Source of the DNA: Scenedesmus sp. PABB004
Lineage: Eukaryota
Direction of reading: 5' to 3'
Assembly (NCBI GenBank): GCA_014905635.1
Contig: JABVCE010000009.1
Location: 124,001-188,000 of the forward strand
DNA: 64,000 nt
A program made the position numbers and the translations under genes. Positions 8,901 to 49,279 of this stretch are shown piece by piece (within the stretch, counting starts at the first letter, position 1; each line of letters starts with the position of its first letter). The notes under the pieces were generated by a model, which worked only from the letters and a program-made list of their open reading frames with translations, searched no databases and was not told the DNA's origin.

Positions 8901-11900
8901 GTCCGCAGCGTACGCGCCCTCACGTGCCTGCTGGCAGATCAGCGCGCTGCACACGGTTGCCGGCAGGGCCTGCTGTGCCGCCGGCCAGCCGCGCTGCGCC
9001 GCCGCCAGGAGCTCGTACAGCTGCCACGTGGTGTCCGGCGGCCCCGCGTCCCTCGCGCTCGCCGCCAGCAGGTCACATGCAAACGTGTGGACCGCGGCCG
9101 GCGGCGCCGCGGCGCACTGCTCGCGCAGCCACGACAGCAGCCGCGCCGGGTCGGCGCCCTGCACCACGGCTGCCGCTGTTGCCGCGTCGGGCGCCCGGCC
9201 CTGCTGCAGCAGCACCGCCAGCACGGCCAGGCTGGGGCTGCCGTTGCCCTGGTCGCCGCGGCCACCGGCGTGCGCCACCTTGGCCAGCAGCGCCGCCGGC
9301 AGCTGCGCCAGCAGCTGATGCTGCTCCGCGTGCGCCACCAGTCGCGCCAGCGCGCATGCGCTGCGCGTGGCCAGCGCCGCCTGCAGCAGGGCCGCCACCA
9401 GCGGCGCAGGCAGCCGCGTGGCCAGCAGGCCGTCGGCCGCATATCTGCTGAGCGCGGCGACGACTGCCTCACAGGCGTCCACCGACAGCGGCGGCGCCTG
9501 CGGCTCTGTCGCCGCTGCCGCCGTGAGCGCGTCCGGCCAGAGCTGCAGGAGGCTGCCGTCGTCGGTGCCGCGCCCAGCCGCGCGCGCAGCGCCGGCCACG
9601 GCGCCTGACAGCACCGCCGCCACGTCTTCAGCGGTCAGGTCCAGAGCTGCCGCGTGCTGCAGGGCCAGCCGGTACAGCCGGCCGCCACCGGCGGCGCACT
9701 GCGCGGCGGCGACCGGAAGCGCCGCCGCCAGGCCCGGCTTCCGCGGCAGGCGCCGCGGGCTCAGCAGCTCCACCACCCGCGGGGCCAGCTCTGCCAGCAG
9801 CTCCGCGTGCGCCGGGTGGCTGCTGACGGCGAGGCTGGCGAGCAGCGCGTCCAGCAGCAGCAGCCCGGGCACGTAGCCCCCGCCGCCAGCATCCCCCAGC
9901 GCCGCGCGCTGCAGCTGCTCGCTGGCTGCTGCGGCCGCAGACAGGACAACGAGGCGCACGAGCTGGCCAGCATGCAGCTCCCAGGACAGCAGCTGCGGCA
10001 GCTGGGCAGCCAGCCAGGCCTCGCTGGGGCGCTCGCCACCAAACGCGGGCGTGGCCGCCAAGCGCGCGTCGAGCCCGGCGGCCAGCGCCGAGGCCCATAG
10101 GTCTGCCAGCGCCTCCCAAGCCCCTGCAGGCGGCGGCGGTAGCGGCGGCAGCTGTCAGCCGCAGCAGCAGCACACATTCGCGCCTGCTGTGCTGAGCAGG
10201 TGTGTGCGTGCGCCGCTGGCACCGCACCCTCGACAACCGCCTGGCGTAGCAACAGCTCGTAGTCCTCGCCGTGCAGCAGCAGCACGGCCTTGGCGAGTTC
10301 TGCCAGGCTGCTGAGCCACTGCGCGGGCGTCAGGCTGCAGCGTCCTTGCACCAGGTGCTTGGCCACCGCCTGCAGCAGCGCCTGCGCCGGCGCCTCCAGC
10401 TGCTCAAACGGCCCCAGCACGCTGACGATGTGCTTTGCCATGTTGATGGCACGCGAGAAGTGCCTGGTATCTGTGTGAGCAGCTGCTGCCAGCCCAAGCA
10501 GCCTGGGAAAGAGGCGCCACACGCTGGGCGCAAGCGCAGCACCGCCACTGCCCTGATCGGCAAGCCTCAGCTCGAGCTGCACAGGGCTCAGCATAATCAC
10601 TGGAAATGGCAATGCCACAGTGCCATTAAGCAGCAGCTCTGTGTGGCAGTGGTGGCGGCGGCCAGCCACAGCCAGGCGCGCAGGCGCGCAGCGCTGATGG
10701 GCGCCAGGCTCAGGATGCGGCTGTTCACCAGGCTGCGCGCGCCCGTGCCGGTGATGCTCCAGCCCGCGGCGCAGGTCGCCTCTGCCACCGCCAGCGCTGC
10801 CGACTGCGCCGCTGACAGAAGTTCGTCGTACGGCCTGCGGGCGCGGGCGGCCGGCGGCAGGTGAGTGGCCGGTCAGGGCAGCCAGCAGTCTCTGCAGCCG
10901 GCAGATCCGCCCACAACGCTGGGCGCACCTGAGGAACTCCGGCTCCAGCGCGCCGGGGCCCATCAGCAGCCGTGCGGCCTGGAGGCTGCTGGCACCGCTG
11001 CTGATGCGCGTCTGTGCGAGCGCCGCCGCAAACCAGACCGTGGTTGGCAGCTTGGGTCGCTGGCGTATCTCCAACAGTGGGCGTGCCGCTGAGATGCGGG
11101 AGAGCCAGTCCAGCAGCGCGCCAGTCAGCGCCGGGTCAAAGCTGTCCAGGGTGCTGCCCAGGAGCTGCAGCAGCTGCTCCACAGCGGGCCGGTCCCACGC
11201 CGCTTGAATGATATCCAGCTGCTCATCCGTCCATCCGCCTCCTTTGTTGTCACCTACCAGCAGCGCCGCCTGGAGGGTGCGCTGATGCTGCTCGCTAGCC
11301 GACTGCAGCATGCGCGCCAGCTGGGCAGCAGCGTCGGCCACCGCCGCGGCAGCGCCTGCAGCCCCACCGCCCTGCGCAGCGCCGCTGTGAGCTGACGCTG
11401 CCTTGGCTGCCGCCTCCGGCAGGGGCAGGCCGCGCTGCATGAAAACCTCCAGCGTGGCGGCTGCTGCGCGGTCGCCGCGCGCCAGCGCCAGCGCCCGCAG
11501 CTGCGTGCTCATCTGCACGGGCGCAGTGCTGAGGTGTGACGGCGGCATTCCAGAGCCCTGCAGCGCGCTGGCCGTGTGCAGCACCCAGCGCGCCAAGAAC
11601 GCGCTGTGCGGCTCCTGCAGCAGCGCCTGGCCGGTGGCGACTGCCTCGGGCCCCGGCTGCCCGCCCGCCTGCTCCAGCGCCAGGCCCACCAGGTCGCGCC
11701 AGTAAAAGCTGTACAGCCAGCAGGCGCGCCCAGCGTCGATGACCTGCGTGGCAGCAGGCAGCGAGGGGCGTGCGCAGGGGAGGGTCAGCGGAGCGCCACG
11801 CGGCTGCTGCCAGCAGGTCAGCTGACGCTGTGCTCACCTCCAGTTGGTTGCTGAGCTGCAGCTCGAGGTAGGCGTTGACAGGCTCGGCCCGGGCAGCGAC

Positions 11901-13813: not shown

Positions 13814-15744
13814 TCAAACCGCCGCCCGCGCCGCGGCCGCCGCCGCCTGCTCGCGCGCGACCGCCGCCGCGGCCGCGACGGCGCGCGGGCGGCTGAACGC
13901 GCGGCAGAGCGCCGCCAGGCCGATGTAGCCGCCGCCGCCGCCGCCGCCCTCGGCCGCGCGCTGCAGCTCGTTGGCGCCCAGCACAAAGTGCTGCGCGGGG
14001 TCGCCGGCGGGCGTGCGCGGGGCCGCCGCGCAGGGGCTCCAGAGCTTCACCGTGCTGTCGATGCCGCACGAGGCGACGAGCGGCAGGCTCGGGTGGGACT
14101 CCGCGCAGTTGACGACGTAGCGGTCGGCGCGCAGGCAGCTCACCAGCGCGCCTGCGCGCCGCAGAGGGCACGGCGCGGAAAGGGGCACGGCGCGGTCGGC
14201 GCGCGCATCCATGCTCGCGACGGGGCGCTGCCCGGCGCAGCAGGCCAGTGCCCGGCGCAGCCCAGGCGGCGCAGCGCACCCGTGTCGCGGCGCCAGATGA
14301 ACAGCCGGCCGTCGTCGCTGCCGGCGGCGACCCAGGCCTGGCGCGGGCCGACGAAGGCCACGTCCTTCACTGTCTTGACGCTGATGTGGCCCCGATACCT
14401 GCGGCGCACGGCAGCAGGCGTCGAACGCGCGCCACTGGCTTGCGCGTGACGCGCCACGGCCGCCGCTGAGCGCGCGCGGGCCCCGCGGCCGCGCGCCCGC
14501 TCGCGCGCACCGGCACGCCCAGCGGTGCTGCCGGCCGCTGCTCACGCCCCACGCCGCGCCGCCGGCGGCGTCGTCGCCGCCGGCGCCGGCGTTGCCGCCG
14601 ACGTCCGCGCCCACGCCCGCGGCGCCGACGCGTGGGCCGCTGCCGGCGGCGCCGGGCGCGCCAAACTCGCCCGCGGCCAGCAGGCGCCCCAGCTCAACGA
14701 TGACCGGATCGTCCTGCGGGTGCGCCCCAGCGCGCAGCGTGAGCTGGCAGGCCCCCCTGTGGGCGCTCCCGCCCCGGCCGCGCCGCCGGCGCACCGGGGT
14801 GAGCAGGTCAGACGCCGCCAGCAGCTCGTGCCCCTGGGTGTCGCCGCTGTCCTCGCTGCCGTCGTCGCTGCCGCTGCTGTCGCCGCTGCCCTCGTCGCCG
14901 CTGCCGCCACCGCCGGCTGGTCGCGGCGCTGCTCCCTGCTGCGCCTGCGGCTGCGGCTCCTGCTGCTCCGCTGCCTGCTCCTGCTGCTGCTGCTCTGCTG
15001 CCTGCTGGTGCTCCACCCCCTGCTGCTGCTGCTGCTCCGCCCCCTGCAACTGCTCCGCTGCATGCTGCCCCGCTCCCTGCTGCTGCTGCTCCGCGTCGCG
15101 CTGCGCCGCTCGCTCCTCTCGGATCTCCCGCCGGACCTGCAGCATCACGAGCTGCCGCCGGAGCGGCGCCAGCAGCTCGGCAAAGCGCTCGCGGTCCGCG
15201 TCGCACGGGCCGCCGCGCGCGCGCTCGCCGTCGTCGGCGCCGCCGCCGGCGCCGGCGCCACCGCCGTCCGGCGGGTCACCGCCCCAGTCCAGCACCTCGT
15301 GGCGGCGGTCCAGGCCAAAGAAGGCGTCCTCGTCGTCGCCGTCGCTCGACCACGAGTCCGCGCCGCCCTCGCTGCTGCCGCCGCTCGACCACGACTCGCC
15401 GCGGCTCCCGCTGCCGCCGCCGAGCTGCGCGCTGCCGCCGCGCGCGCTGCTGCCGCTGCCTCTGCCGCTGTCGCCTGACATGTCAAGGCTGTCCAGCACC
15501 TCCGAGCCGCTGCTGCCGCTCAGTGACATGCTGCTGCCGCCCTCGTCGCTGCTGCTCTCGCCGCTGCCGCCGCTGCTGCTGCTGCCGCTCGCCGCCTCGC
15601 CGCTGCTGTCGCTGCCGGCGCCCGCCGGCGACCAGGGCTCCGAGTCGCCGCTCGCTGCAGCTGCAGCCGCGGCGAACGCGCCGTCCTCGTCGTCTGGCGC
15701 CACCGGCTGCTGCGCACTGGCTGGTGGGCCGCCGCCGCCTGGAG

Positions 15745-15776
<32 letters not shown>

Positions 15777-18077
15777 GCGGCGGCGGCGGCAGCCGCGCCC
15801 GCATCGCCGCCCGGTGACGCAGGCGCGGCAGCGCCAGGCAAGATGCCGCGCGCGGCGAGGCGCTCCTGCAGCAGTGCCGGCAGCGGCGCCGCGGGCGCGC
15901 CTGGGCCGCTCGGCCGGCCCCCCTGGACGCCGCCCTCGTCGGGCGCCACCGCGGAGGCGACCGCCTCGGCTGCCGCGGCCGCCTCGGCCGCCCGGGTGAG
16001 CCGCAGCACAAACTGCTGCAGGTCGTAGCTCCACGAGACCTCGAGCGCGGCGCGCCCCTGCGCGAGCGCCTCTGCCGGCCGGCCCTGCGCCTCGAGGCAG
16101 AGCGCCAGCTGGAAGTGGGCGGCGCCGTAGGTTGGGTGGAGGCCGAGCGCGGCAGAGGCAAAGCTGCGCAGCACCGCGCGAGAGGGTGGTGCCGGGCGGG
16201 CGGCGCAGGGCGGGGCGGCGGGTGAGGTGGGCCACGGCGCGCGCGTGCCCAGCGCGGCGCGCCGAGCCCGCGAGCGGCCCGCGCGCGCCGGCGCCGCTGC
16301 GGGCAGGCGCGCACCGCGCCGAGGCGGCCACCTCGCCGCGCTCGAAGAGGTCGCAGGCGCGGTTGAGCACGGCGCTGGCGAGGCCGCGGCGCCGCGGGTA
16401 CGACAGCTCGCCGCGCTGCCGGCGGCGGTGGCGGCAGGCAGGCAGGCGGCAGCAGATGGCGCAGGGCGGGCATGGGGCGGCGGCCCGGCGCGGCCGGGGC
16501 TGCGCAGGGGGGCGCTGCCCGGTCGGGTGCGGCCGGCGCTGCGCGCGGCACAGCGCACACAGCGCGCGCGGTGCGCACCTCGAGCATCTCCACCGCGACG
16601 TCCACGCTTATCACGCGCCGCTGCTCCCCGCCGGCGCCCGCAGCTGCGCCCGCTGCACCAGCAGCCGCGCCCGCGCGCTCGCGGCCGCGCCCGCGTCCGC
16701 GTCGGCCGCGTCGCCGGCGGAGGCCGCCGCCTCGGCCGCGCCGCGCGCGCGCTTGGCGCGCCGAGCGTCGCCGCCCGCCGCCGCGGGCGCCGGCGCTGTG
16801 CCGCTCGCGGGTGGGGCGTCGAGGTCCCACAGGTATACGTGGTCCGCTGCGGCGGCGCGGCGGCGGCGGCTGCTCGGGCGCCCGCCGCCGGTGCCGCCGG
16901 CGCCAGCGCTGCCTGCGGCCGCGCGCGCACGCGAGGCGTCTGCGCGCTGCCGCGGCCCCCGCGGGGCGCCCGTCGCTCACCCAGGTGGTTGCTGAGCACC
17001 TGCGTGCCGCAGTCTGAGAAGGCCACGCCGGTGATGCACGCGCTGAACATATCCTCCGCGCAGCACAGCCCCGGGCTGAAGTGCGCGACGCACTGCGCGG
17101 CGGGCGGCGCGGCGCTGAGCCTGAGCCGGCGGCGGCGGCGCACCACGGCGCGGCGCGAGAGCCGCGGCAGCGCGCCCGCTCACCTGCGGCCCGCGGCGCC
17201 GCGCGGGCGCCCGGCTGCTGGCGGTGCCGCCGCCGGGCGGCATGCGGCGGTCATACACACGCAGCGCGTCGTCGCTGGCGCCCACCGCCAGCAGCCAGGG
17301 CTTGTGCCTGCGCGCGCGTGCGCAGGGCGTGCGTTCACGCAAGGCGTGCGCTCGCGCGGCCACGCCCCGCGCCGCCGCACGCCGGCGTGCGTCCCGGCGC
17401 CCGCGGCAGCGCGGCGCACCAGGGCGACGAGATGGAGTTGATTTCCAGGCTCACGCCGCCGCGGGCGAGCTGCAGCAGCTGCGTCGCGCCGTCAGCGCGG
17501 GCACGCAGGTCGACCTGCCACACCGAGCCGTCCTCGCTGCAGCTCGTCAGCGCGTGGGGGTTGCCCGGCTCGGTGGTCAGCTTCTTGACGCGGCTGCTGT
17601 GGTGGCTGAACACCGTGCGCGCGCCGGTCGCAACGTCGTGCAGCCGCACCTCGCCGTCGCCCGCGCAGCTCGCCAGCTGGGCGCCGCCGGTCGCTGCGCG
17701 CGCGGCGGCGGCGGTTGGCGGCGGTCGCTGCCTGCAGGCCGCGCTCCCTCCCCGCCTTGGCGGCAGCACCGCCGCGTGGACGCACCTGGGATCCAGCGGA
17801 CGCAGAAGATGTTGGCGGTGTGGCCGGTCGGCAGGGTGGCGCGGGGCGTGGCGGCGCCGCTGTCGACCCCCGCGTCCCACAGGCAGATGCGCGTGTCGTC
17901 GCTGCCGCTCGCCAGCAGCGTGCCTTCTTCGTTCCAGGCAAGATGGTTCACGCAGCCGCGGTGCCCGACGAGCAGGCGCTCCAGGGCCAGGCGCGGCCAG
18001 AGCGCCGCCGCCGCGCCGCTGCGCCACGCGCCGCTGCCGCCGCCGCCCTGCTCGGCGGCCAGCAGAAGGCGGTCCAT
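13814..18077 (-). CDS. WD40-repeat protein with TPR and acidic insert, WDTC1/DCAF6/DCAF8-like (CUL4-DDB1 substrate receptor family); multi-exon
   Basis: LVGHRGCVNHLAWNEEGTLLASGSDDTRICLW, GHTANIFCVRW, HSSRVKKL, LAVGASDDALRVYDRR, TPR-like AAHFQLALCLEAQGRPAEALAQ, then YRGHISVKTVKDVAF, GSDDGRLFIW and VVNCAESHPSLPLVASCGIDSTVKLWSP. Confidence 0.85.
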
Positions 18078-38690: not shown

Positions 38691-39004
38691 GCGCCCTGAG
38701 CGGCGGCGGCGGGTCCGACGAGGGGCGCGCGCAACTTGCTGCAGTTGCAACTTGCTGCAGTTGCACAGGCAGGCAGGCAGGCAGGCAGGCACGCACCACC
38801 CATGGTTCGCACTCATCGCGGGCAGCGCAAAATCGCCCGGCAGTCGCCGCTCTCCCCCGTCAAGCGCCGCCCTCCGTCCTGGGGCTGGCCTCCTCCCTCG
38901 CCGGCAGCCCATGCGGGCGCCGCGCACCCGGCCGCAGCCTGCCGCCGTCGCGCGCAGCGCAGCACGGCCACCGCCACCATGCTGCGCGGGCGCGGCGCGG
39001 CCGC

Positions 39005-39758
39005 TCACTCGTCGAGGTCCCCGCCGGCGGCGCGGCCCTGCTTCTTGCCCTTCAGCGCGCCCTTGACGTTGTCCACCAGCTCCTTCAGCGTGTCGCCGTG
39101 CCCGTGGCCCGACCCCTGCGCGGCGCGCGGCGCGCGGCCGCGCTCGCGGCCGCGGTCGCAGTCGCAACACAGCGGCGGCGCGCAGAGCACGCACGCGCGC
39201 ATGTCGATGCGGGCGTGCGCCGCGGCGCCGCACCTCGACCTCGGGGCCGCGGCGCTCGGCGCTGTAGTCGCCCTCCACCTTGCTCATGTTGTTGTGCGGC
39301 AGCTCCTCGCGCTCGACGTCGGTGCCCTCGATCTGGTTCTTGCGCCGCCACTCCAGTCGCTCCTGCTGGTACTCGTACTGCTGCTCCTTCTCCGCGCGCC
39401 GCACCTGCGCGGCGCGGCGCGGCGCGGCCGTGCGCGGCGCGGCCCGGGGGGCGCGCTGCGCGCGCTGGGCGCGCGCGCGCGCACGTTGCCGTCCTTGGAG
39501 CCTGCGGGGTTGGAGCGCCGGCTCTTGGTGGTCTCGCGGTCGTGGTAGATGTTATGCTTGTCGGGCGAGGGCTTGTCCGACGACGCGCGCGGCGCCAGCG
39601 CAAGCGCGCGCCTGCGGCAGCGGCGCGGCGTCGCGGGCGCGGGCGGCGCGCGGCGCGGCGCGTCCGGGCCCCGACGCGCCCCACCTGAGCGCGGGGCGGG
39701 CGGGCGCGGCGCTCGCGGCCAGGCGCGGCGCGCCGGGCGCGCGCGCGAGCGAGGCCAT
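39005..39758 (-). CDS. Small hydrophilic, charged, probably plastid-targeted protein (4 exons, ~160 aa), function unknown
   Basis: Exons MASLARAPGAPRLAA.. | RALALAPRASSDKPSPDKHNIYHDRETTK.. | VRRAEKEQQYEYQQERLEWRRKNQIEG.. | GSGHGHGDTLKELVDNVKGALKGKK..DLDE*, bounded by GT-AG introns with host-like codon use. Confidence 0.7.
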
Positions 39759-40119
39759 GACGGCGGCGGCGGCGGCGGGCGCGCGGGGTCGGGCGTGGGC
39801 GTCGTGGCGTGCAGGCGCGGGGGAGAGCAAATTCTGGCGAGTGGGGCGCTGCAGCTCGCGCTGAAGGGCGTCGCGCCGCGGGTTCTGTGCATTGCGGTGC
39901 GGCCGCGGCGCCGCTCCGAGCCCGTCCCGCCTCGCAGTGCTTCCAGTCCCTCCCAACCCCCGCGTACCGGCTCGCCCAGGCGTGTGCGCCCCGTGCGCGC
40001 CGCGCGGCGCCGCCGCTGCTCGTGCCCGCCCGCCAGCTTGCGTCTGCGCTCACGCCGCGGAGCCGCGCCCGCTTTTGGCCGCTCTCCGGCGCGCGCTGGA
40101 GGTCGAGGCGCGCAGGGGC

Positions 40120-42056
40120 GGCGCCGGCGCAGCGGCGCTCGCAGCGGCGGCGGCGCCTGGAGCAGCCGCTGCTGTCGGCGGCACCGCGACGCGTTCGTTG
40201 TCCTGGCGCCTCGCTTGCGGCTTCCAGGCACCTGATCGGGTGCCTGATCAGGGGTCCAGGCACCTGATCGGGTGCCTGATCAGGTGCCTGGAAGCGGCAA
40301 GCGAGGCGCTTGCGCAGCTGCAGGCCACGGGCGCGCAGCTCGCAGCGGTCAACGCGCAGCGCGCGAGTGCTGAGCGGCGGCGGCGGCGCGGCGGCGCATT
40401 TGCTCGTGGGGATTGAGGCGCGCGCCTCGATGGACGCGTGCGAGTTGTGGCGCGCGCCTCGATCGAGGCGCGCGCCTCAAGCCCACGAGCAAGTGCGCCG
40501 CCGCCGCTGCTGCGCGCTGGCACTCGGCCGCAGCGCGGCGCGGCGCGCCCGCGCCGCGCTGCGCCGCGCGCCGCGCCGCGCCGCGCGGCCGCGCCGCGCC
40601 GCGCGCGCTGCCAGGCTCGGCGCCAGGTCGCCGCCGCGGCGTCGTGTCGGCCGAGCAGTGCGGGGGGAGAATCATCGCCTTGAAGTCGTACCGCAGGGCG
40701 ATGATTTCAGGGCGCATGATCCTCCCCCCGCACTGCTGGGGCGACGCGTTGGCGGGGGCGATCCACGGCCGCCCAAGCTCCATGTCCGTGGCGTGCGTGG
40801 ACGCTCGGCGAGGCCATGACGCTGGAGCGGCCTGCGGCGCGACCCGGCCAGCGCGCTCCAGCTGGTCGGATTCTCCTCCGAGGCGCGCGAGATCGTCCCG
40901 CCCGGTGCGCTGGTGCCGCTGCGCGCGCGCCGCGCGGGCGCCACGCGGGCGCTGCTGCCCCCCGCCTCCCAGCCGGGGGCGGCCAGACGTCACCCCCCCC
41001 CCCCTCCCTCGCGCCAGGCCGCGGCGGTGGCGCGATCTGGGGCTGCCTGTGCGGGTGGCTGCGGACGCGCGCCAGGGCCTTTGGGGCCGCCGTTTGTGAC
41101 GCTCATGCACTCTCCCACGCTGTGCACGCGCGGCAAACGGCGGCCCCAAAAAAGGCCCTGGTGCGCGGGCGCGGGGGCGGCGGGGCCGTGCCAGCCGCGG
41201 CGGCGGCGCGCTGCGCGCGCGCGCGCGCGCGCAGCCGCCGCAGCGCTGCGGCCGCGCGCGCTTGCGCCCCGCGCGCACAAGCTCTCCTGCCACTGGCAGG
41301 CCCCTTGCGCGCGAGCGCGCAGTCGGGCCATGGTCGAGCCAGCTGCGTACTGCCTCTCCGCCTGGACCTCGGAGAGCCGGTGCGCCGCCGGCTCGACCAT
41401 CGGCCCGACCGCGCTCGCGCGCGAGGGCCTGCCGCCCGGCCTGGCCAGCGGGTGGGCGCCGCCGCCGCCGCCGTCGCCGCCGCGCTCGCGCCCCGCGGCC
41501 TCTTGCGCCCGCGGCGGTCGCGTCCCCAGCCACTGCAGCAGCCGGTCCGCCCCAAACTCGGCGTCGCTTGCGTTGCTGACGTCCAATGTCGGGCTCAGCG
41601 ACCCATCGATGAGCCAGACGACGACGTCAGCGGCGCGAGCGACGTCGGGCTTGCGGCGTCTGGCGTCAGGCGCAGCGACGCAACGCCGGCCGCTGTGGCT
41701 GGCGCCAGACGCCTGGCTGCCCAGGTTCATGCGCGCGCGCGCGCCAGCCGCGCCCGCCGCCGCCGTGCTGTCGGCGCCCCGAACAGCGCGGCCACCACGT
41801 TCAGGCGCTGTGCACAGCACACAGCGCATAAACGTTGTGTCTGTGTTGCTCAAGCCACGTTTCTTCCAGGTCAGCACCTCCTCCAGCGCAACCTCCGCGA
41901 GCGCGAAGGTGGCTGGCGGAGGTGTTGCAATCATGGGGGAAGCGCAGCGACGCGGTGCCTGGAGTGCGGCGGCGGCGGCGGCTGCTGGGAGCAGGCTGCG
42001 CGGGTCGGCGCGCTGCGCGGGGCCTCGACGTTTGTGCGACGACCAGGCATCGCTGC
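40120..42056 (+). ncRNA. Putative polycistronic hairpin RNA (pri-miRNA-like cluster or large structured ncRNA)
   Basis: Consecutive long imperfect inverted repeats read by eye at 40206-40309, 40388-40504, 40654-40737, 41066-41167, 41295-41433, 41557-41649, 41655-41713, 41781-41851 and 41858-41944, plus weaker ones. Mismatches are mostly G·U on the + strand. Confidence 0.6.
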
Positions 42057-42111
42057 TTGGCGCCTGTGACCGCCCTTCTTGTGGGCTGCGCTCGCTGACC
42101 AGCCGCTCGCT

Positions 42112-42116
42112 TTACA
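42112..42116 (-). promoter_or_regulatory. TGTAA polyadenylation signal of the CNNM gene
   Basis: ttaca on + reads TGTAA on -, ~110 nt past the CNNM stop. TGTAA is the established chlorophyte near-upstream element. Confidence 0.55.
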
Positions 42117-42224
42117 GGAAACCCACAGACCTCCAACCAGCCCGATCCCGCGCCTCATCAGGAGGAAAAGAAAGCGCAGTGCTCGCAGTGCCTCTGCCGT
42201 GCCTGCCGCTCCCGGCGCGCGCGC

Positions 42225-45200
42225 CTAGGGGTCGGCGCTCCGTTCGCGCCGCGCCGCGCCGCCGCTGCCCTCGCCCGCCATGCCCAGCGCGCTGCTGCTC
42301 CGCTGCTTGATGATCTTGCGCGCGACCGTCACACGCGCCGCGGCGGCGCCCGCGACGGCCGCGGGGCTCGGCGCCGCGCTGCGCGCGGGCAGCGGCGCGA
42401 GCGCGAGACGCAGCTGCGCCGGCAGCGACTGCGCGAGCGCGGCGGCGTTGACGGTGATGGTCCGGTAGCTGCGGCGGCGCGAGCGCGGGGCAGGGAGCAG
42501 GGGGGTCAGGCGGGGCGCGGCAGGCGCGCGGCAGGCGCAGCGGCGCCCGCGCGGCCGGCCGGCCGGCGCGGCGGCGCTGCCCTCCTCCCCCCGCGCGCCG
42601 CTCACTTGTCCACAAAGAGATCGGTCTCGTCCACTGCGGGGCGCGCCGCAAACGCCGGCGGGCGGCGAGGCAGCGGGCGTCGGCAGCGGGGCAGCGCGGC
42701 GCCAGCGCGGCGGACGCGGCGCCCGCGCGCGCCGCGCGCTGCGTCGCCGCGCTGCGACGCCCCCCCCCCCCTCCCTCCCTTCGCACCAATCTCTGACTGC
42801 ACGAGCTCCTCAATAACGTCTTCGATCGTTATGACACCGATCGGCACCGCCACGCCCTCCGCCGCGCCGGCGGCGTCGGGCCCGTTGCTGCCGGTCAGCA
42901 GCGTCGGCAGCGGGCCGCTCATGCTGCGGCCGTGGCTGCCGCGGCTGCCGCGGCTGCCCCGGCTGCCGCCGCTCGCGAGGCGCACGAGGTCGTCGGGCTC
43001 GCCGCCGGCGCTGCCGCCGCCGCTGCTGCTGCGGCTGTGCGCGCCGCCGTCGCCGCCGGCGGCGGGCGCGGGGCCGAGCAGCTCGTCCGCGTCGCTGAAC
43101 TGCACGACGCGCGGCGCCAGCTTGGCCTGCGCGCTGCCGCCGCCGCCGGCGAGCTCCTGCTCGCGCCCCGCGGCAAAGGGGCTCGCGCCGTTGGCGCCGC
43201 GCTGCGGCGGCGTCCAGGGGAAGTGCTGCGGCGGCTCCGCGGCGAAGCCAAAGCCCAGCAGCTCCTGCTCGGGGAACAGCGCGGACGGCTGCCGCTCCGG
43301 CGTGGCAGCGGCGGCGGCGTCCACGATCCACGCCGCCGCCGCGCTGTCGGGCGCGCCGTCGGAGCCCAGCAGGTGCGCCGCCTCCTCGCGCGGCTGCAGC
43401 AGCGGCGACCGGAAGCGCTCCGCCTCCTGCTGCCGCTGCTTCTGCTTGCGCCCGCCGCCGCGCTTCGCGGCCGCGGCGCCGCGCGCCGCGGCCGCCTCGG
43501 CGGCGGCGGCCGCCGCGGCAGCGGCGGCCTCGGCCGCCGCGCGCGCCGTCGCGGGCGTGTCTGTGAGCACCACCATGTGGCTGCGCCCCGTCTGGAAGAG
43601 CTTCAGCATGTCATACATCGGCGTGTCCGCCGGCAGCCTGCGCCGCGGCGCGGCACACGGCGCGCGGCGCGCGCGGTCGGTCGACGACGCGGCGCCGGCC
43701 GCGGCGGCGGTGAGGGTGCTGCGGCCCGCGCCGCGCCGGCGTGCCCGCGTCCACGCGCCCGCGCCGCGCGCCCGCGCCGCCCGCGCTGCGCGCACCGTGG
43801 CAGGCTGCGCATGCGCACGTCCCGCACCGGGACCTCCTGGTGGGTCTTGTACTGCAGCAGCTCCTTGACCAGGATGAGACCGATGATGGCAGACCTGCGC
43901 CCGCGGCCGCGGCGGCGGCGGCGGCGGCGGCGGCGGGGGCATCATTTTTCAAAGACAAATAATGACACCGTGTCGGCGCCGGCGCGGCGGGGCGGGTCGA
44001 GCCGACCGGCCGCGCGTGCGCTGCGCGGGGCGGGCGCGGCCGCGCGGCGCGGCGCGCGCCTGTCGCCGCCGGTGTAGACGGGTATGCGGCTGTGCCCACT
44101 CGCGAGGATCGCGCGCATGGTCGCCTGGTTGAGCAGCGCGTCGGCGGGCAGCATGAACACCTTGCCCAGCGGCGTCATCGACCTGCGGCCGGCCGGCAGC
44201 GGCGGCGCGGCGCGGCGGCGCCAGCTCGGCGCTCGCGCAAGCACGCAGCGCCGCGGCCTGCGGCGGCCGGCGCAGGGCGGCCGCCGCGGGGGCGGCCGCG
44301 CCGCCCCGCCCCGCGGCGCTGGTGCGCTGGCGCGGCGCACAGCGCGCGCACTTGCGCGCGGTCTTGTTGGTGAGGTCGAGGGCGCCGCAGATGACCTTGA
44401 TCTCATCCTCGCTCAGGTTGCCGCCCAGGCCCTCGTCGGCGCCGTGGATGTCAACGAGCGCCTTGAGCTGGCCGCGCCTGCGCGGGGGCGAGCGTTGAGC
44501 GCGGGCGCGCGCGGGGGCGAGCGGTGAGCGCGGGCGCGCCGGCGGCGGCGCCGCGCGGCGGCGGGGCGGGGCGCGGCGCGCGCCTGAACAGCGCGCGGTG
44601 CTCCACGCCCAGCAGGAAGTCGAGCAGCTTGCCGATGGGCCAGCTGATGGGAGACGTGACTGCGGCGGCGCCGGCGGGGGTCGGCGGCGAGCGGCGGCGC
44701 CGGTGGCCTGCCGCTGTGACGGCCCACAGCGCAGCCCGCCGGCAGCAGACCCCCGGCCGCCCGCCGCCGCCCGCCTGGCAGCGCACCCGCCATGAGGCCG
44801 CGCACGAGCCAGGCGCAGTAGTAGCCGATGGCCAGGCCGTACCTGCGGCGGCCACGCGCGGGGCCACGCGCGTCAAGGGCCGCTGCAGCGTCGCGGGCCC
44901 CCCGCCGGCCGCCGCCGCGCGCGCGCGGCCGCGCACCTGCTGCAGACCGCCTGCGGGAGAATCTCGCCAAACACCAGCACCGCCGTCACCGAGATGAGGA
45001 TGGCCGTCACGGGGTCGGCCAGCCTGCGCGCCGCCGGCGGGGCGGCGCGCGCGCAGCGGCGTCTCGCAGGGCGCGCCGCGCGCCGCGCCGTGCAGCGCTG
45101 CTCGCGCGCCCGAGCGCCGGCGGCGGCGCACCGGTCGAGGAAGAGCGGGAGCGCCTCCATCGCGCACGCGTTGCACAGCAGCAGCGTGACGAGCAGGAAG

Positions 45201-45561
45201 TGCTGGTTGGCCACGATCGGCGCGATGGCCGACGCGTAGAGCTGCTCGCGCGGCGTGCCGCTGCGCTTGAGCACCTCCAGCTCCACCTGCGCGCGCGCGC
45301 GCACGCGCGCGCGCGGCGCGTCGGCGGGCGCCCCACCGCGCGGCGGTGGCGGCGGCGGGGGCGGCGGCGGGGGCGCACCAGGTCCATGGACATGAGCCCG
45401 AGCGTGAGGCCGCTCGCGAGGCCGGCAAAGATGACGAGCCCGACGCTGATGCCGATGAGCGCCAGCCGCACGCTCGGGGTCAGGGGCTCCTCGCCGTGCA
45501 CCAGCAGCAGCCGGCCGCCGGCCTGCACCGCCAGCGCGGCCGACGCGCGCAGGCGCCGCAT
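42225..45561 (-). CDS. CNNM/DUF21 transmembrane + CBS-pair metal (Mg2+) transporter family protein; multi-exon
   Basis: [70 protein letters not shown] and [23 protein letters not shown]. Confidence 0.93.
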
Positions 45562-46303
45562 GGCGGCGGCGCGCCGCGCGCCGCCGCAGCCGCTGCTCCG
45601 CCTGGCGCCTAGCGCCGCCGCATCGTCGCGGGCGCCCGCCTGATGGCACGGGAGGTGGACGAGGGCACGGGAACGCCGGCGGGCCGAGGGCGAGGGGGGC
45701 TGCTGTGGCTGTGGGGCGCAGGAGAGGCGGGTCTCTGCTGCCGCTCGATGGTCGGGCGCGCGCCTGTGACTGCGCGGCCAGGGCCGGGCTGCTGCGAGTG
45801 TGGCGGGCGGCGAGCAGGGAAGGCGCAGGCGATCGGGGGCGACCGGGGCGCACACAGAGCGGCATAACAGAGGCAGCCCGCAGCGCCCAAGCGGCCGCAC
45901 AACGCACTGTATGGCTCAGTGACGGGCGACCCGGCCGCCCAGACGCACGCCTGCGCGCGGAGCAGCATCAGTTGCCGACGTTTTCGCTCCCACGCGGCTG
46001 GGCGACGCTCGCGGCGGCCTGACACCCGCCCCACGGTGCGCAGGGCGCCGCACCGCACGCCGCCCGCAGCAGCAGGCCGGCCGCCGCGCGCACGCGCGCG
46101 CCGCAGCGCCGGCGCCGTCCGGAGCGCTGCTGCCGGCGGTGCGCGGCGCGCGCGCAACTCCTCGGCGCCGCCCCAGCCGCGCGTCGCCGCCACCCCCGCC
46201 GCTGCCGCACACGCACGCAGCGGCGCGCTGCGGCGGCAGCAGCGGCGGCAGCGGCGGCGCCGGTCGCGCGGGCAGCGCCGGCCGCTCGCCGCGCCGGCCG
46301 GCC

Positions 46304-48367
46304 ATGGCGGCGCCCGACGACGCCGGCGGCGGCGCGGAGGCGAGCTACTACGCCATCCTCAACGTCCCGCGCGAGGCGACGCCGGAGGAGATCAAGCGCG
46401 CGTACCGGGGCCTCGCGACGGTCTTCCACCCCGACAAGCACCATGACGACGCGCTGCGCGAGACGGCGCAGGCCGCGTTCGCCAAGCTCCAGGCGCGCGC
46501 CGGCGCCGAGGCCGCGCCCCGCAGCGCGTGCCCCCGTCATGCGCGCCGCCGCTCACGCGCCGCGCGCACCACCGCACCGCCGCGCGTCCCGCAGGAGGCG
46601 TACGAGGTGCTGTCCGACCCCGCGCGGCGCGACGTGTATGACGTGTACGGCAAGGAGGGCCTGACCGCGGGGCTCGCGGTCGGCACGAAGCTCAAGGACG
46701 TGGAGGAGCTGCGGCGCGAGTGGGAGGCGTTCAAGGCGCAGCAGCGCGCCGCGCGCGAGGCCGCGGCGGCGAGCCACCGCGGCATCTACGTGTGCAAGGT
46801 CGACGGCCGCGGCTGGGCGCACGGCGACTGGGCGGCGCTGCCGCAGATCCGCATGGTCGTCGTGCAGAACAGCCTCGACGTCGCGTGGAGCGACGCCGAC
46901 GTGGGCCTGCTGCAGGGCCAGGCCGCGCTGCGCGGCGGCCAGGGCAGCGGCAGCGTCGTCGCGGGGTACAAGCGCGTGCTCTCGCCCAACGACGAGCTCG
47001 AGGCCAACGCGGTGCTCGGCCTGCGCAGCCTGCTGACCGTCACGAGCACGCGGCGCCTCGGGCACTACACGACCGCCGCGCTCACGGGGTCGTACAACTG
47101 GGAGCAGGGCGCCGGCCTGCAGCTCAGCACGACGCGGCAGCTCACCGCGGCCGCGACCGGGTCGCTGAGCTGGGTCGTCGGCCCGTCCGGCGCGGCGGGC
47201 ATGGCGCTGAGCCTGTCGCACCGCGGCGCGCGGTACGCGGTCAGTGGCAAGCTCGACGTCGGCGCGGTCACCTCAGTCAGCAGCCGCCTGACCTGCCTGC
47301 TCAGCGAGGGCGTGAGCCTCAAGCTCACGGGCCGGCTCGGCACGGCGGGCGTGGACGGCGAGCTCGGGCTCACGCGGCGCTTCGGCCCGGGGACGACGCT
47401 CTACGCCGGCACCGCGGTCAGCCTGCAGGGCGGCACCGCGTTCAAGGTCCGCTACGCGCGCGCGGGGCAGGTGTTCGAGTTCCCCATCCTCCTCACCGGC
47501 GACCCGCGCGACTGGGAGATGCTCGCGGCCGCGAGCGTGCTGCCGCCGCTCGCGTCGTTCCTCGCGCTGCGCTACGTGCTGCGCCCGCTGCGCGCGTGGG
47601 GCGCGCGGCGCGCGGAGCGCGCGGCCCGCGCGCAGCACGCGGCGGCGCTGCGCGCCGCGGCGGCGCGCGCGGGCGCGGAGCGCGCGCTGCTCGCGCCCGT
47701 CGCGCGGCGCAAGGCGGCGGCCGAGGCGGCGGCCGAGGGGCTGGTCGTGCTGGAGGCGACCTACGGCGTGCTGCACGAGTGGCGCCTCGCGCGCGCCGCG
47801 GCCGCCGCGGCGGCGGGGCAGCAGCCGCACGGCGAGCCCGGCGGCGCGGCGCAGCCCCAGCAGCAGCAGCAGCAGCCCGCCGACCTGCAGCAGCCCGACC
47901 AGGCGCGCCGCGCGCCGGGCGGCGGCAAGCGCCAGCGCATCGGCAGCCCGCGCGCCAACGGCGCCGCGCCGCCCGCCGACGGCGCCGCGCCGGGCGCGCC
48001 CGGCGAGCCCGCCGCCGCCGGCGCCGGCGCGGCGGGCGAGGGCGGCGGCGAGACGGAGGAGCAGGGCCTGCCCGCCGCGTGGCTGGACGTGACGGAGGCG
48101 CTGCAGTACCTCGTGGCGGGCGGCAAGCTCGAGCTCGCGGGCGGCGTGAGCAAGCTCGGGCTCATGGGCTTTGCGGACGTCGCGCCGAGCGCCGACAAGG
48201 AGCTGTACGTCGCGTACGCGCACCGGCGGCAGCTGTTCGAGAAGGTCGTCGCCGACGGCGAGCTGCTGCGCCTGCCCGGCGCGGGCGAGCCGGTCGCCGA
48301 CGCGGGCGCGAGCGAGCGGCTGTGGGCGCGCTACCGCGCGGCCGCGGCGCCGGCGGCGGGGCAGTAG
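46304..48367 (+). CDS. DNAJC11: DnaJ homolog subfamily C member 11-like (J domain, beta-rich middle, DUF3395 C-terminus)
   Basis: YYAILNV..EEIKRAYR..FHPDK, EAYEVLSDPARRDVYDVYG, GQVFEFPILL, GLVVLEATYG, LDVTEALQYLV and SKLGLMGFAD..KELYVAY. One GC-AG intron at 46493-46594. Confidence 0.9.
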   Translation: MAAPDDAGGGAEASYYAILNVPREATPEEIKRAYRGLATVFHPDKHHDDALRETAQAAFAKLQARAGAEAAPRSACPRHARRRSRAARTTAPPRVPQEAYEVLSDPARRDVYDVYGKEGLTAGLAVGTKLKDVEELRREWEAFKAQQRAAREAAAASHRGIYVCKVDGRGWAHGDWAALPQIRMVVVQNSLDVAWSDADVGLLQGQAALRGGQGSGSVVAGYKRVLSPNDELEANAVLGLRSLLTVTSTRRLGHYTTAALTGSYNWEQGAGLQLSTTRQLTAAATGSLSWVVGPSGAAGMALSLSHRGARYAVSGKLDVGAVTSVSSRLTCLLSEGVSLKLTGRLGTAGVDGELGLTRRFGPGTTLYAGTAVSLQGGTAFKVRYARAGQVFEFPILLTGDPRDWEMLAAASVLPPLASFLALRYVLRPLRAWGARRAERAARAQHAAALRAAAARAGAERALLAPVARRKAAAEAAAEGLVVLEATYGVLHEWRLARAAAAAAAGQQPHGEPGGAAQPQQQQQQPADLQQPDQARRAPGGGKRQRIGSPRANGAAPPADGAAPGAPGEPAAAGAGAAGEGGGETEEQGLPAAWLDVTEALQYLVAGGKLELAGGVSKLGLMGFADVAPSADKELYVAYAHRRQLFEKVVADGELLRLPGAGEPVADAGASERLWARYRAAAAPAAGQ

Positions 48368-48452
48368 CGACCGACGCGCGCGCGCTGCCGCGGCGGGGGC
48401 GTCGGGGGCGTGTGCTCGCGGTTGAACGCCCCGCCTGCCGCCGCCGACCGCG

Positions 48453-49279
48453 CTACGCGCCGCCCGTCTTGCCGCGCAGCACCAGGTCATGGCGGTTGAC
48501 CTCGCACTCCAGGTCGCCGGCTCCCAGCAGCAGCAGCTCCGCCCCGCCGCCGCCCTCGGCCGCCGCGGCGCGCCGCAGCTGCAGCCGCGCGAGGCTGCCC
48601 TGCACTCTGCCGGGGCTGCCGCGGGCGCCGGACGCCGCCGCCTCTGCCCCGTCGCGCACGCTCAGACCCGCCACGCCGGCTGCAGCTGCGGCTGCCGTGC
48701 CGCCGCCGCTGCCGCCGCCGTCGTCGCCACCCGCGCCGGCGCCGGCGCCGCCGCCGCCCGCCTGCGCCTGGGCGAGCATGTCGCCGAGGCGCAGCACTGC
48801 GCGCTCCACCAGCACCTGCTCGTGCCGCGCCCAGGGGTGGTCGCAGTTGCACACCTGCGGCGGGAGAGCTGAGCGCTGTGCCGCGTGCCCGCCGCCGCCG
48901 GCCGCCGCCGCTGCGCGCCGTGCAGCACGGCGCGCAGCACGGCGCGCACCCAAGGGCTGTGGAACCGCCGGCACTCGCAGCGCGGCTTGGCGCAGGCGTG
49001 GGCGCCCGTGGGGTGGTGCTCCGTGGCTCGGTGCTTGCAGGAGCAGCGCAGCGTCCACGCGCCCTCGGCGACGATAAACTTGAAGCGTTCGCACGCGCAG
49101 CCGCCGCGCGCGCACGGCTCCAGGCCGCCGCGGCCGTGCTCCCTCAGCCGGTGGCCGCAGAGGCAGCGCGACTCGGTCCGGATGGGTACGCAGGCGCGCG
49201 TGCAGTCGCCGCACCGCCACTCCCAGGCCTGCTGCGTGGTCGCGACGGCGGCGGCCACGCCCAGGCCTGCGGCCGCCAT
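48453..49279 (-). CDS. FAM221-like (DUF4475) Cys/His-rich protein
   Basis: SRCLCGHRLREH..C...C.C.RF.FI...W..RCSCKHRATEH...C....C.C..FHSPW|VCNCDHPWARH. One intron at ~48855-48947. The 5' end may extend upstream. Confidence 0.7.

Follow-up and report, generated by a model that had tools for sequence, protein, structure and literature searches.

A cluster of nine unrelated, near-perfect hairpins in a non-coding gap of a green-algal nuclear genome, a candidate small-RNA precursor

Introduction

Why should a stretch of nuclear DNA between two genes fold back on itself nine times within 1.75 kb, each time with a different sequence? This question is raised by positions 40120-42056 of a 64-kb window, the whole stretch of DNA analyzed here (64,000 nucleotides of Scenedesmus sp. 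PABB004, contig JABVCE010000009.1, positions 124,001 to 188,000; all coordinates below are those of the window). An earlier note on this DNA had described the block as an array of ten or more unrelated long RNA hairpins with a + strand G·U bias, and had proposed it as a polycistronic small-RNA precursor. We find nine strong, mutually unrelated hairpins that are clustered far beyond chance in a non-coding gap. Our preferred, though tentative, reading of this sequence is that the block may encode a multi-hairpin non-coding RNA that would feed an RNase III/Dicer pathway.

Results

Nine hairpins fold far better than shuffled sequence

Plain folding energy was rejected as a discriminator. Because the GC content of the window is ~80%, this measure is unusable: 286 non-overlapping single hairpins of -45 kcal/mol or lower are spread evenly over the window. 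Each interval was instead compared with dinucleotide shuffles on both strands, and the resulting z-scores are used throughout. All nine of the strong inverted repeats listed in the earlier note held up on both strands. On the + strand, none of the 200 shuffles matched the fold of any of the nine, and the + strand z-score was lower (a better fold) than that of the minus strand in 9/9 hairpins. Stem lengths range from 24 to 60 bp and arm complementarity from 81 to 96%. The hairpins are also retained when they are folded together: in a fold of the whole 2.2 kb, the + strand keeps 353 of its 363 local pairs and the minus strand 306 of its 339. The six weaker hairpins of the earlier note fared less well. 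Two were marginal (40122-40180, z -2.9; 40766-40832, z -2.7), and the other four (40306-40370, 40834-40918, 40984-41040, and 41944-42056) were no better than shuffles, with z-scores of -0.8 to +0.5, and are not real. The count of ten or more hairpins thus falls to nine.

Hairpins 1 and 2 have a common architecture but no common sequence: each has a unique outer stem of ~18-23 bp around tandem self-complementary copies of period 32. Hairpin 1 (40206-40309) forms 48 bp on the + strand from 47-nt arms that are 89% complementary (z -15.6 on the + strand and -13.9 on the minus strand; pairs of z-scores are given in this order below). Within it, a nearly self-complementary 30-nt unit occurs twice in direct orientation, with no difference between the copies (40223-40252 and 40255-40284, period 32). 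Hairpin 2 (40388-40504; 51 bp; z -13.1 and -13.0) has an outer stem of 23 bp, 96% complementary, that encloses three 18-nt self-complementary copies spaced at a period of 32 and then 18, and GC-rich extensions remain paired out to about 40366-40525. The internal direct repeats of period 32 span 40223-40284 in hairpin 1 and 40405-40478 in hairpin 2. Hairpin 3 (40628-40761; z -11.1 and -9.4 over this extended interval) has a core of 37 bp at 40654-40737 (z -10.9 and -9.6), with weaker pairing outside the core and a duplicated motif close to its apex.

The remaining six hairpins lie further to the right. Hairpin 4 (41066-41167) has 40 bp and a 3-nt bulge (z -10.6 and -8.8), and hairpin 5 (41295-41433) has the longest stem of the array, at 60 bp (z -12.0 and -11.1). 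Hairpin 6 (41548-41658, core 41557-41649) forms 40 bp on the + strand, including six G·U pairs, and 33 bp on the minus strand (z -9.2 and -6.0). It adjoins hairpin 7 (41655-41713; 24 bp; z -6.9 and -4.4). Hairpin 8 (41781-41851; 26 bp; z -4.2 and -2.4) is the weakest of the nine, and hairpin 9 (41858-41944) has a stem of 37 bp when the + strand is folded and of 28 bp for the minus strand (z -6.7 and -4.7).

Together, the nine hairpins occupy 886 of the 1961 nt of 40100-42060. Their sequence is of high complexity with 70% GC, as compared to 82% in the low-complexity spacers. The GC-only spacers are unstructured (z -1.8 to +0.9). The lower GC content and high complexity of the hairpins fit either constraint or recent origin.

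The hairpins are clustered in a single part of the window

To place the array against the rest of the window, inverted repeats were scored by log-odds, with G:C pairs worth less than A:T pairs, after a flat match/mismatch score had failed as a discriminator. At a threshold of at least 300, eight repeats were observed in 64 kb, compared to a mean of 0.1 per window in ten block-wise dinucleotide shuffles. Six of these eight fall in 40206-41658, among them hairpin 4 (score 331) and hairpin 5 (score 529), and hairpin 8 comes next at 274. Clustering of this degree would arise by chance with a probability of about 4e-6. Elsewhere in the window, non-coding stretches of 0.5-1.4 kb contain no repeat scoring 300 or more. 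Given the clustering and the emptiness of these other stretches, a locus-specific cause is needed. The dense array in a non-coding gap described in the earlier note is therefore confirmed, with six of the eight significant repeats of the whole window lying within 1.5 kb.

Outside the block, the scan returned a lone high-complexity hairpin of moderate significance at 11722-11839 (score 349; z -3.8 and -4.9), apparently within or beside a gene region. It also returned 15554-15793, where a CTG-rich tract and a complementary CAG-rich tract, separated by ~150 nt, are scored as one long inverted repeat; this region has coding-like periodicity.

The array lies in the longest non-coding gap of the window

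The window is nuclear DNA of the green lineage. Its GC content is ~80% throughout (0.69-0.83 per kb), its codon-phase GC pattern indicates many short exons, and roughly half of it is non-coding. A DNAJC11-type gene is present, with its nearest Atlas clusters coming mostly from Streptophyta. No other stretch of the window that lacks coding periodicity is as long as the one around the array (about 39.55-42.7 kb), and the gap that contains the array can be placed between the flanking genes at 39760-42224. Over most of 39.5-42.2 kb the codon-phase spread is 0.05-0.18, as compared to 0.3-0.5 in exons, with a single bump of 0.25-0.26 at 41.3-41.6 kb. No Pfam family was detected in the 15 open reading frames (ORFs) of at least 120 amino acids that overlap 40120-42056, and their translations are Arg/Ala/Pro-rich noise. 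These data agree with the earlier claim that no spliceable gene lies between the two neighbors.

The hairpins are unrelated to one another and single-copy in the window

A satellite or tandem array was ruled out, as the longest match between any two hairpins is 18 nt at 89% identity. No second copy of any arm was found within the window, in which only the GC low-complexity spacers match elsewhere. Target-site duplications are absent, with flanking direct repeats of 0-2 nt at 9/9 hairpins, and a scan of 42 ORFs from the region of 36 to 49 kb detected no transposase-like domain. The earlier description of arms that share no sequence, in an array that is neither a satellite nor made of miniature inverted-repeat transposable elements (MITEs), is thus upheld within the window. 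Beyond it, an exact 30-nt word of hairpin 5 had no match in the genome contigs searched. A metagenome scan with the DNAJC11-like protein of the window returned one distant DnaJ-domain match (33% over 98 residues) and no orthologous locus.

All nine hairpins contain microRNA-type duplexes

Published plant microRNA (miRNA) annotation criteria include a duplex rule, under which a 21-nt window may contain at most five mismatches and at most three asymmetric positions. All nine hairpins contain such windows, with 18-96 per hairpin on the + strand and 18-91 on the minus strand. In Chlamydomonas, DCL3-dependent hairpins that give miRNAs and small interfering RNAs (siRNAs) occur in non-coding RNAs, introns, and untranslated regions (UTRs) (PMC4817775).

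Discussion

A multi-hairpin RNA as the favored reading

We favor a functional cause in view of how local the array is, its single copy in the window, and its lack of transposon marks. In the reading that we prefer, and that we hold to be possible at clearly less than an even chance, the block would specify a multi-hairpin non-coding RNA feeding an RNase III/Dicer pathway. The gap would be transcribed as a non-coding unit, and nine near-perfect stem-loops of 24-60 bp would form in its RNA independently of one another. Cutting of the stems by an RNase III/Dicer-like enzyme would then release small RNAs, making the locus a polycistronic precursor of the miRNA or hairpin-siRNA type. What is directly observed is the hairpins, their clustering, their mutually unrelated and non-coding sequence, their single copy in the window, the lack of transposon hallmarks, and the miRNA-type duplexes; the transcription, the processing, and the choice of strand are inferred. 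Transcribed from the + strand, the unit would have a divergent orientation to the gene on the left and a convergent one to the CNNM-type gene on the right, and it would fit the G·U excess described below. The array probably grew by local palindrome birth in what would be an already transcribed stretch, where new palindromes would be retained through co-expression. Such growth is suggested by hairpins 1 and 2, with their internal duplications of period 32.

Sequence features of the arms offer hints as to where some of these palindromes may have come from. The 3-nt GC periodicity of the arms exceeds that of shuffled arms (mean spread of 0.33 versus 0.21; Fisher p=0.0045). When read on the minus strand, three left arms are exon-like by codon score: 41781-41812 in hairpin 8 (log-odds of 1.23 per codon), 41858-41898 in hairpin 9 (1.00), and 40646-40690 in hairpin 3 (0.71), where the exon mean is 0.63 and the non-coding mean is -0.01. 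This sequence evidence hints that some arms may be inverted copies of coding fragments. A six-frame tblastn search with the block found no parent sequence for the arms in the window, giving one match at E=0.16. A more specific version of the favored reading would be a dedicated green-algal locus in which at least nine unrelated long hairpins are diced from one RNA, the array having grown by palindrome birth with some hairpins perhaps being inverted fragments of target-coding sequence. We consider this version unlikely on balance.

The G·U excess and the evidence that weighs against the favored reading

The earlier note had based its case for selection on the + strand on an excess of G·U over A·C among arm differences. 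The direction of this bias is reproduced. In Watson-Crick-only folds, 1x1 mismatches comprise 17 G·U and 4 A·C over all 15 intervals, and 16 and 4 over the nine strong hairpins. Alignment of the arms gives 27 G·U, 11 A·C, and 26 transversions, and the 27 versus 11 split differs from an even share (p=0.014 against 0.5). Its interpretation as a signature of selection is less clear. In a palindrome, a strand skew can only show at mismatches, and a regional mutational asymmetry therefore mimics selection. The unpaired spacers of the block have more T than A (114 versus 76), as does the left flank (48 versus 22).

Several results weigh against the favored reading. The four G·U pairs of hairpin 1 stem from its single 30-nt duplication (30/30 identical) pairing with itself, and without this hairpin G·U versus A·C is 23 versus 11 (p=0.058). 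Spacer and flank composition predicts a G·T share of 0.60-0.69, and against these expectations 27 of 38 gives p=0.11 and 0.48; the first of these is the spacer expectation. The strand difference in folding energy follows the keto (G+T) skew throughout the window (r=-0.90), and the block, at -4.0 kcal/mol per 120 nt, falls between the extremes of the 2-kb bins (-5.2 to +8.7). The G·U excess does not stand on its own, and it is no clean sign of selection on a + strand RNA. In addition, an RNA function does not need the nested self-complementary units and period-32 duplications of hairpins 1 and 2, which point to an origin at the DNA level. The search of Rfam that the earlier note had proposed yielded no match at the gathering score in the 64 kb. 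Finally, no 21-mer from the hairpins has a near-perfect match elsewhere in the window; none has fewer than two mismatches, and those with two to three mismatches are GC-rich. What survives of the earlier small-RNA proposal is its structural premise of unrelated, near-perfect hairpins, all nine of which contain miRNA-type duplexes, and its argument from + strand selection is weakened.

Membership in a curated miRNA family was likewise not found. The best sub-threshold match was to MIR2084 (38.4 bits versus a required 100), and it was seen on both strands and therefore reflects a generic hairpin shape.

Base composition elsewhere in the window gives conflicting hints as to the strand. The sense strand of 31 putative introns has T>A (-0.09) and C>G (-0.08). 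The T>A bias favors the + strand for the block, and the C>G bias is absent from the block. The sense strands of genes in the window are poor in G+T, which would favor a minus-strand transcript. As a separate observation, the sense strands of genes are A+C-rich, and transcripts antisense to the genes of this genome would therefore tend to fold better than the sense transcripts.

Possible palindromes without a function

The strongest competitor to the multi-hairpin RNA is that the array consists of non-functional DNA palindromes from a local hot spot, produced by fold-back or template-switch repair together with slippage and persisting in an unconstrained stretch. We regard this as unlikely, though it deserves serious attention. 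The internal structure of hairpins 1 and 2, which are built from period-32 tandem self-complementary units with one pair 30/30 identical, fits such a process, and the apical motif of hairpin 3 is duplicated as well. Both strands fold almost equally well, and the G·U excess is no larger than spacer composition predicts. Set against these points, this explanation needs a mechanism specific to the locus, as the rest of the non-coding window has only one other, modest high-complexity repeat (the hairpin at 11722-11839). Arms that are 81-96% complementary and have 70% GC, versus 82-95% in the surrounding non-coding DNA, would also be odd for old neutral sequence where the genome as a whole has 80% GC.

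A possible minus-strand tail of the CNNM gene

The array is flanked on both sides by minus-strand genes, and this arrangement raises a further explanation. The right neighbor (42225-45967, minus strand) is a CNNM-type gene, identified by a match to PF01595 (E=1.6e-9) in the ORF at 44876-45967 and by a minus-strand phase pattern. Its likely stop codon is the TAG at 42225-42227, at the end of the terminal ORF, and its exon structure is tentative. The array starts ~280 nt downstream of this likely stop codon. The left neighbor is a small gene (39000-39759, minus strand) with a minus-strand phase pattern and a likely ATG at 39757-39759; its model is inferred, and the label of plastid gene given to it in the earlier note is putative. 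Its predicted product seems to start with an Ala/Arg-rich N-terminus and to continue in hydrophilic segments rich in Lys/Glu; the spread of these segments over at least three frames implies introns.

The hairpins could accordingly belong to a minus-strand RNA, in which they would lie either in a long 3' UTR of the CNNM gene or in a read-through tail. Cleavage by an RNase III/Dicer-like enzyme would destabilize the mRNA or provide fail-safe termination before the next minus-strand gene is reached, and small RNAs would be a by-product. We judge this explanation to be distinctly improbable. The orientation of both neighbors and the position of the array ~280 nt past the likely stop suit it, and the minus-strand folds are strong in their own right (z -2.4 to -13.9). 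Given that sense strands here are G+T-poor, a neutral hairpin transcribed from the minus strand would gather G·T mismatches on the + strand, as seen. A precedent exists in Chlamydomonas, where DCL3 cleaves mRNAs with 3' UTR hairpins (PMC4817775). Other observations are harder to accommodate. The minus-strand folds are weaker in 9/9 hairpins, and the + strand spacers have T>A, the sense-like sign of the putative introns. A minus-strand TGTAA at 42112-42116, between the CNNM stop and the array, precedes the hairpins, which is a weak objection, with two such motifs in the window versus 2.7 expected.

Decayed transposons as an improbable alternative

Many known miRNA-like hairpins derive from MITE or foldback elements. 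A nest of decayed non-autonomous elements of this kind, each from another family, in a tolerant intergenic gap is the least likely of the explanations: whole-length inverted repeats of 60-160 nt with a GC content below that of their surroundings are typical of such elements, but 0/9 hairpins have flanking direct repeats longer than 2 nt, no arm recurs in 64 kb or is related to another, and a transposase-like domain is missing from all 42 ORFs examined at 36-49 kb.

Comparison with known systems

If the favored multi-hairpin RNA is produced, its closest relatives may be the DCL3-dependent precursors of Chlamydomonas reinhardtii, which resemble the present hairpins in coming from the green lineage, in forming near-perfect stem-loops, and in lacking a conserved sequence family. 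In the part of that work available, those precursors are single hairpins per host transcript, whereas here nine unrelated ones, known from sequence alone, lie in 1.75 kb (PMC4817775). According to a review, clusters of miRNAs are common in Drosophila but only two MIR clusters are reported for Ectocarpus (PMC12026948), and such clusters are thus rare in algae.

The array also resembles animal polycistronic miRNA clusters, in which several distinct stem-loops lie within 1-2 kb and potentially come from one primary transcript. Animal pre-miRNA stems are ~33 bp and are processed by Drosha. Here, in contrast, six of the nine stems reach 37-60 bp with almost complete pairing, and internal repeats that are nested or duplicated occur in three hairpins. 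The hairpin RNA (hpRNA) loci of Drosophila and plants likewise form near-perfect intramolecular duplexes that exceed a canonical pre-miRNA in length. These loci are long inverted repeats that give endogenous siRNAs, and their stems are usually hundreds of base pairs long and derived from one inverted duplication, unlike the nine short, unrelated hairpins described here. Finally, MITE and foldback hairpins are similarly short and consist almost wholly of two inverted arms. The present hairpins differ from them in having no target-site duplications, in being single-copy in the window, and in being mutually unrelated.

Our literature search found no nuclear multi-hairpin array in a green alga, which does not show that none is in print, and the literature on palindromic repeats met in that search concerns organelle genomes. 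If transcribed and diced, the block would pack its hairpins into a polycistronic cluster more densely than the algal examples found in the literature. Green-algal small RNAs of the miRNA type are mainly represented, in the portions of the literature consulted, by single Chlamydomonas hairpins that are not conserved between species. The birth of new hairpin genes is an open question, and the array, if the favored reading is true, would be a snapshot of hairpin birth within one transcription unit and a compact small-RNA locus in an organism with ~80% GC. If the palindromes are instead non-functional, inverted-duplication mutagenesis has a strikingly local hot spot here, a matter that would be relevant to genome stability.

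Additional observations on the window

Two features of gene ends in the window were noted in passing. TGTAA, the usual chlorophyte poly(A) signal, occurs twice in 64 kb as compared to 2.7 times expected by chance. It does not mark most gene ends, and with a count at the chance level it was rejected as a poly(A) marker in this window. The DNAJC11-like protein is encoded on the + strand by a single open frame of 688 amino acids with DnaJ, beta-barrel, and C-terminal domains, ending at a stop at ~48365. A convergent minus-strand coding region seems, by eye, to end ~90 nt beyond this stop (48365-48460). With this spacing, the 3' ends of the two convergent genes would be very tight or overlapping.

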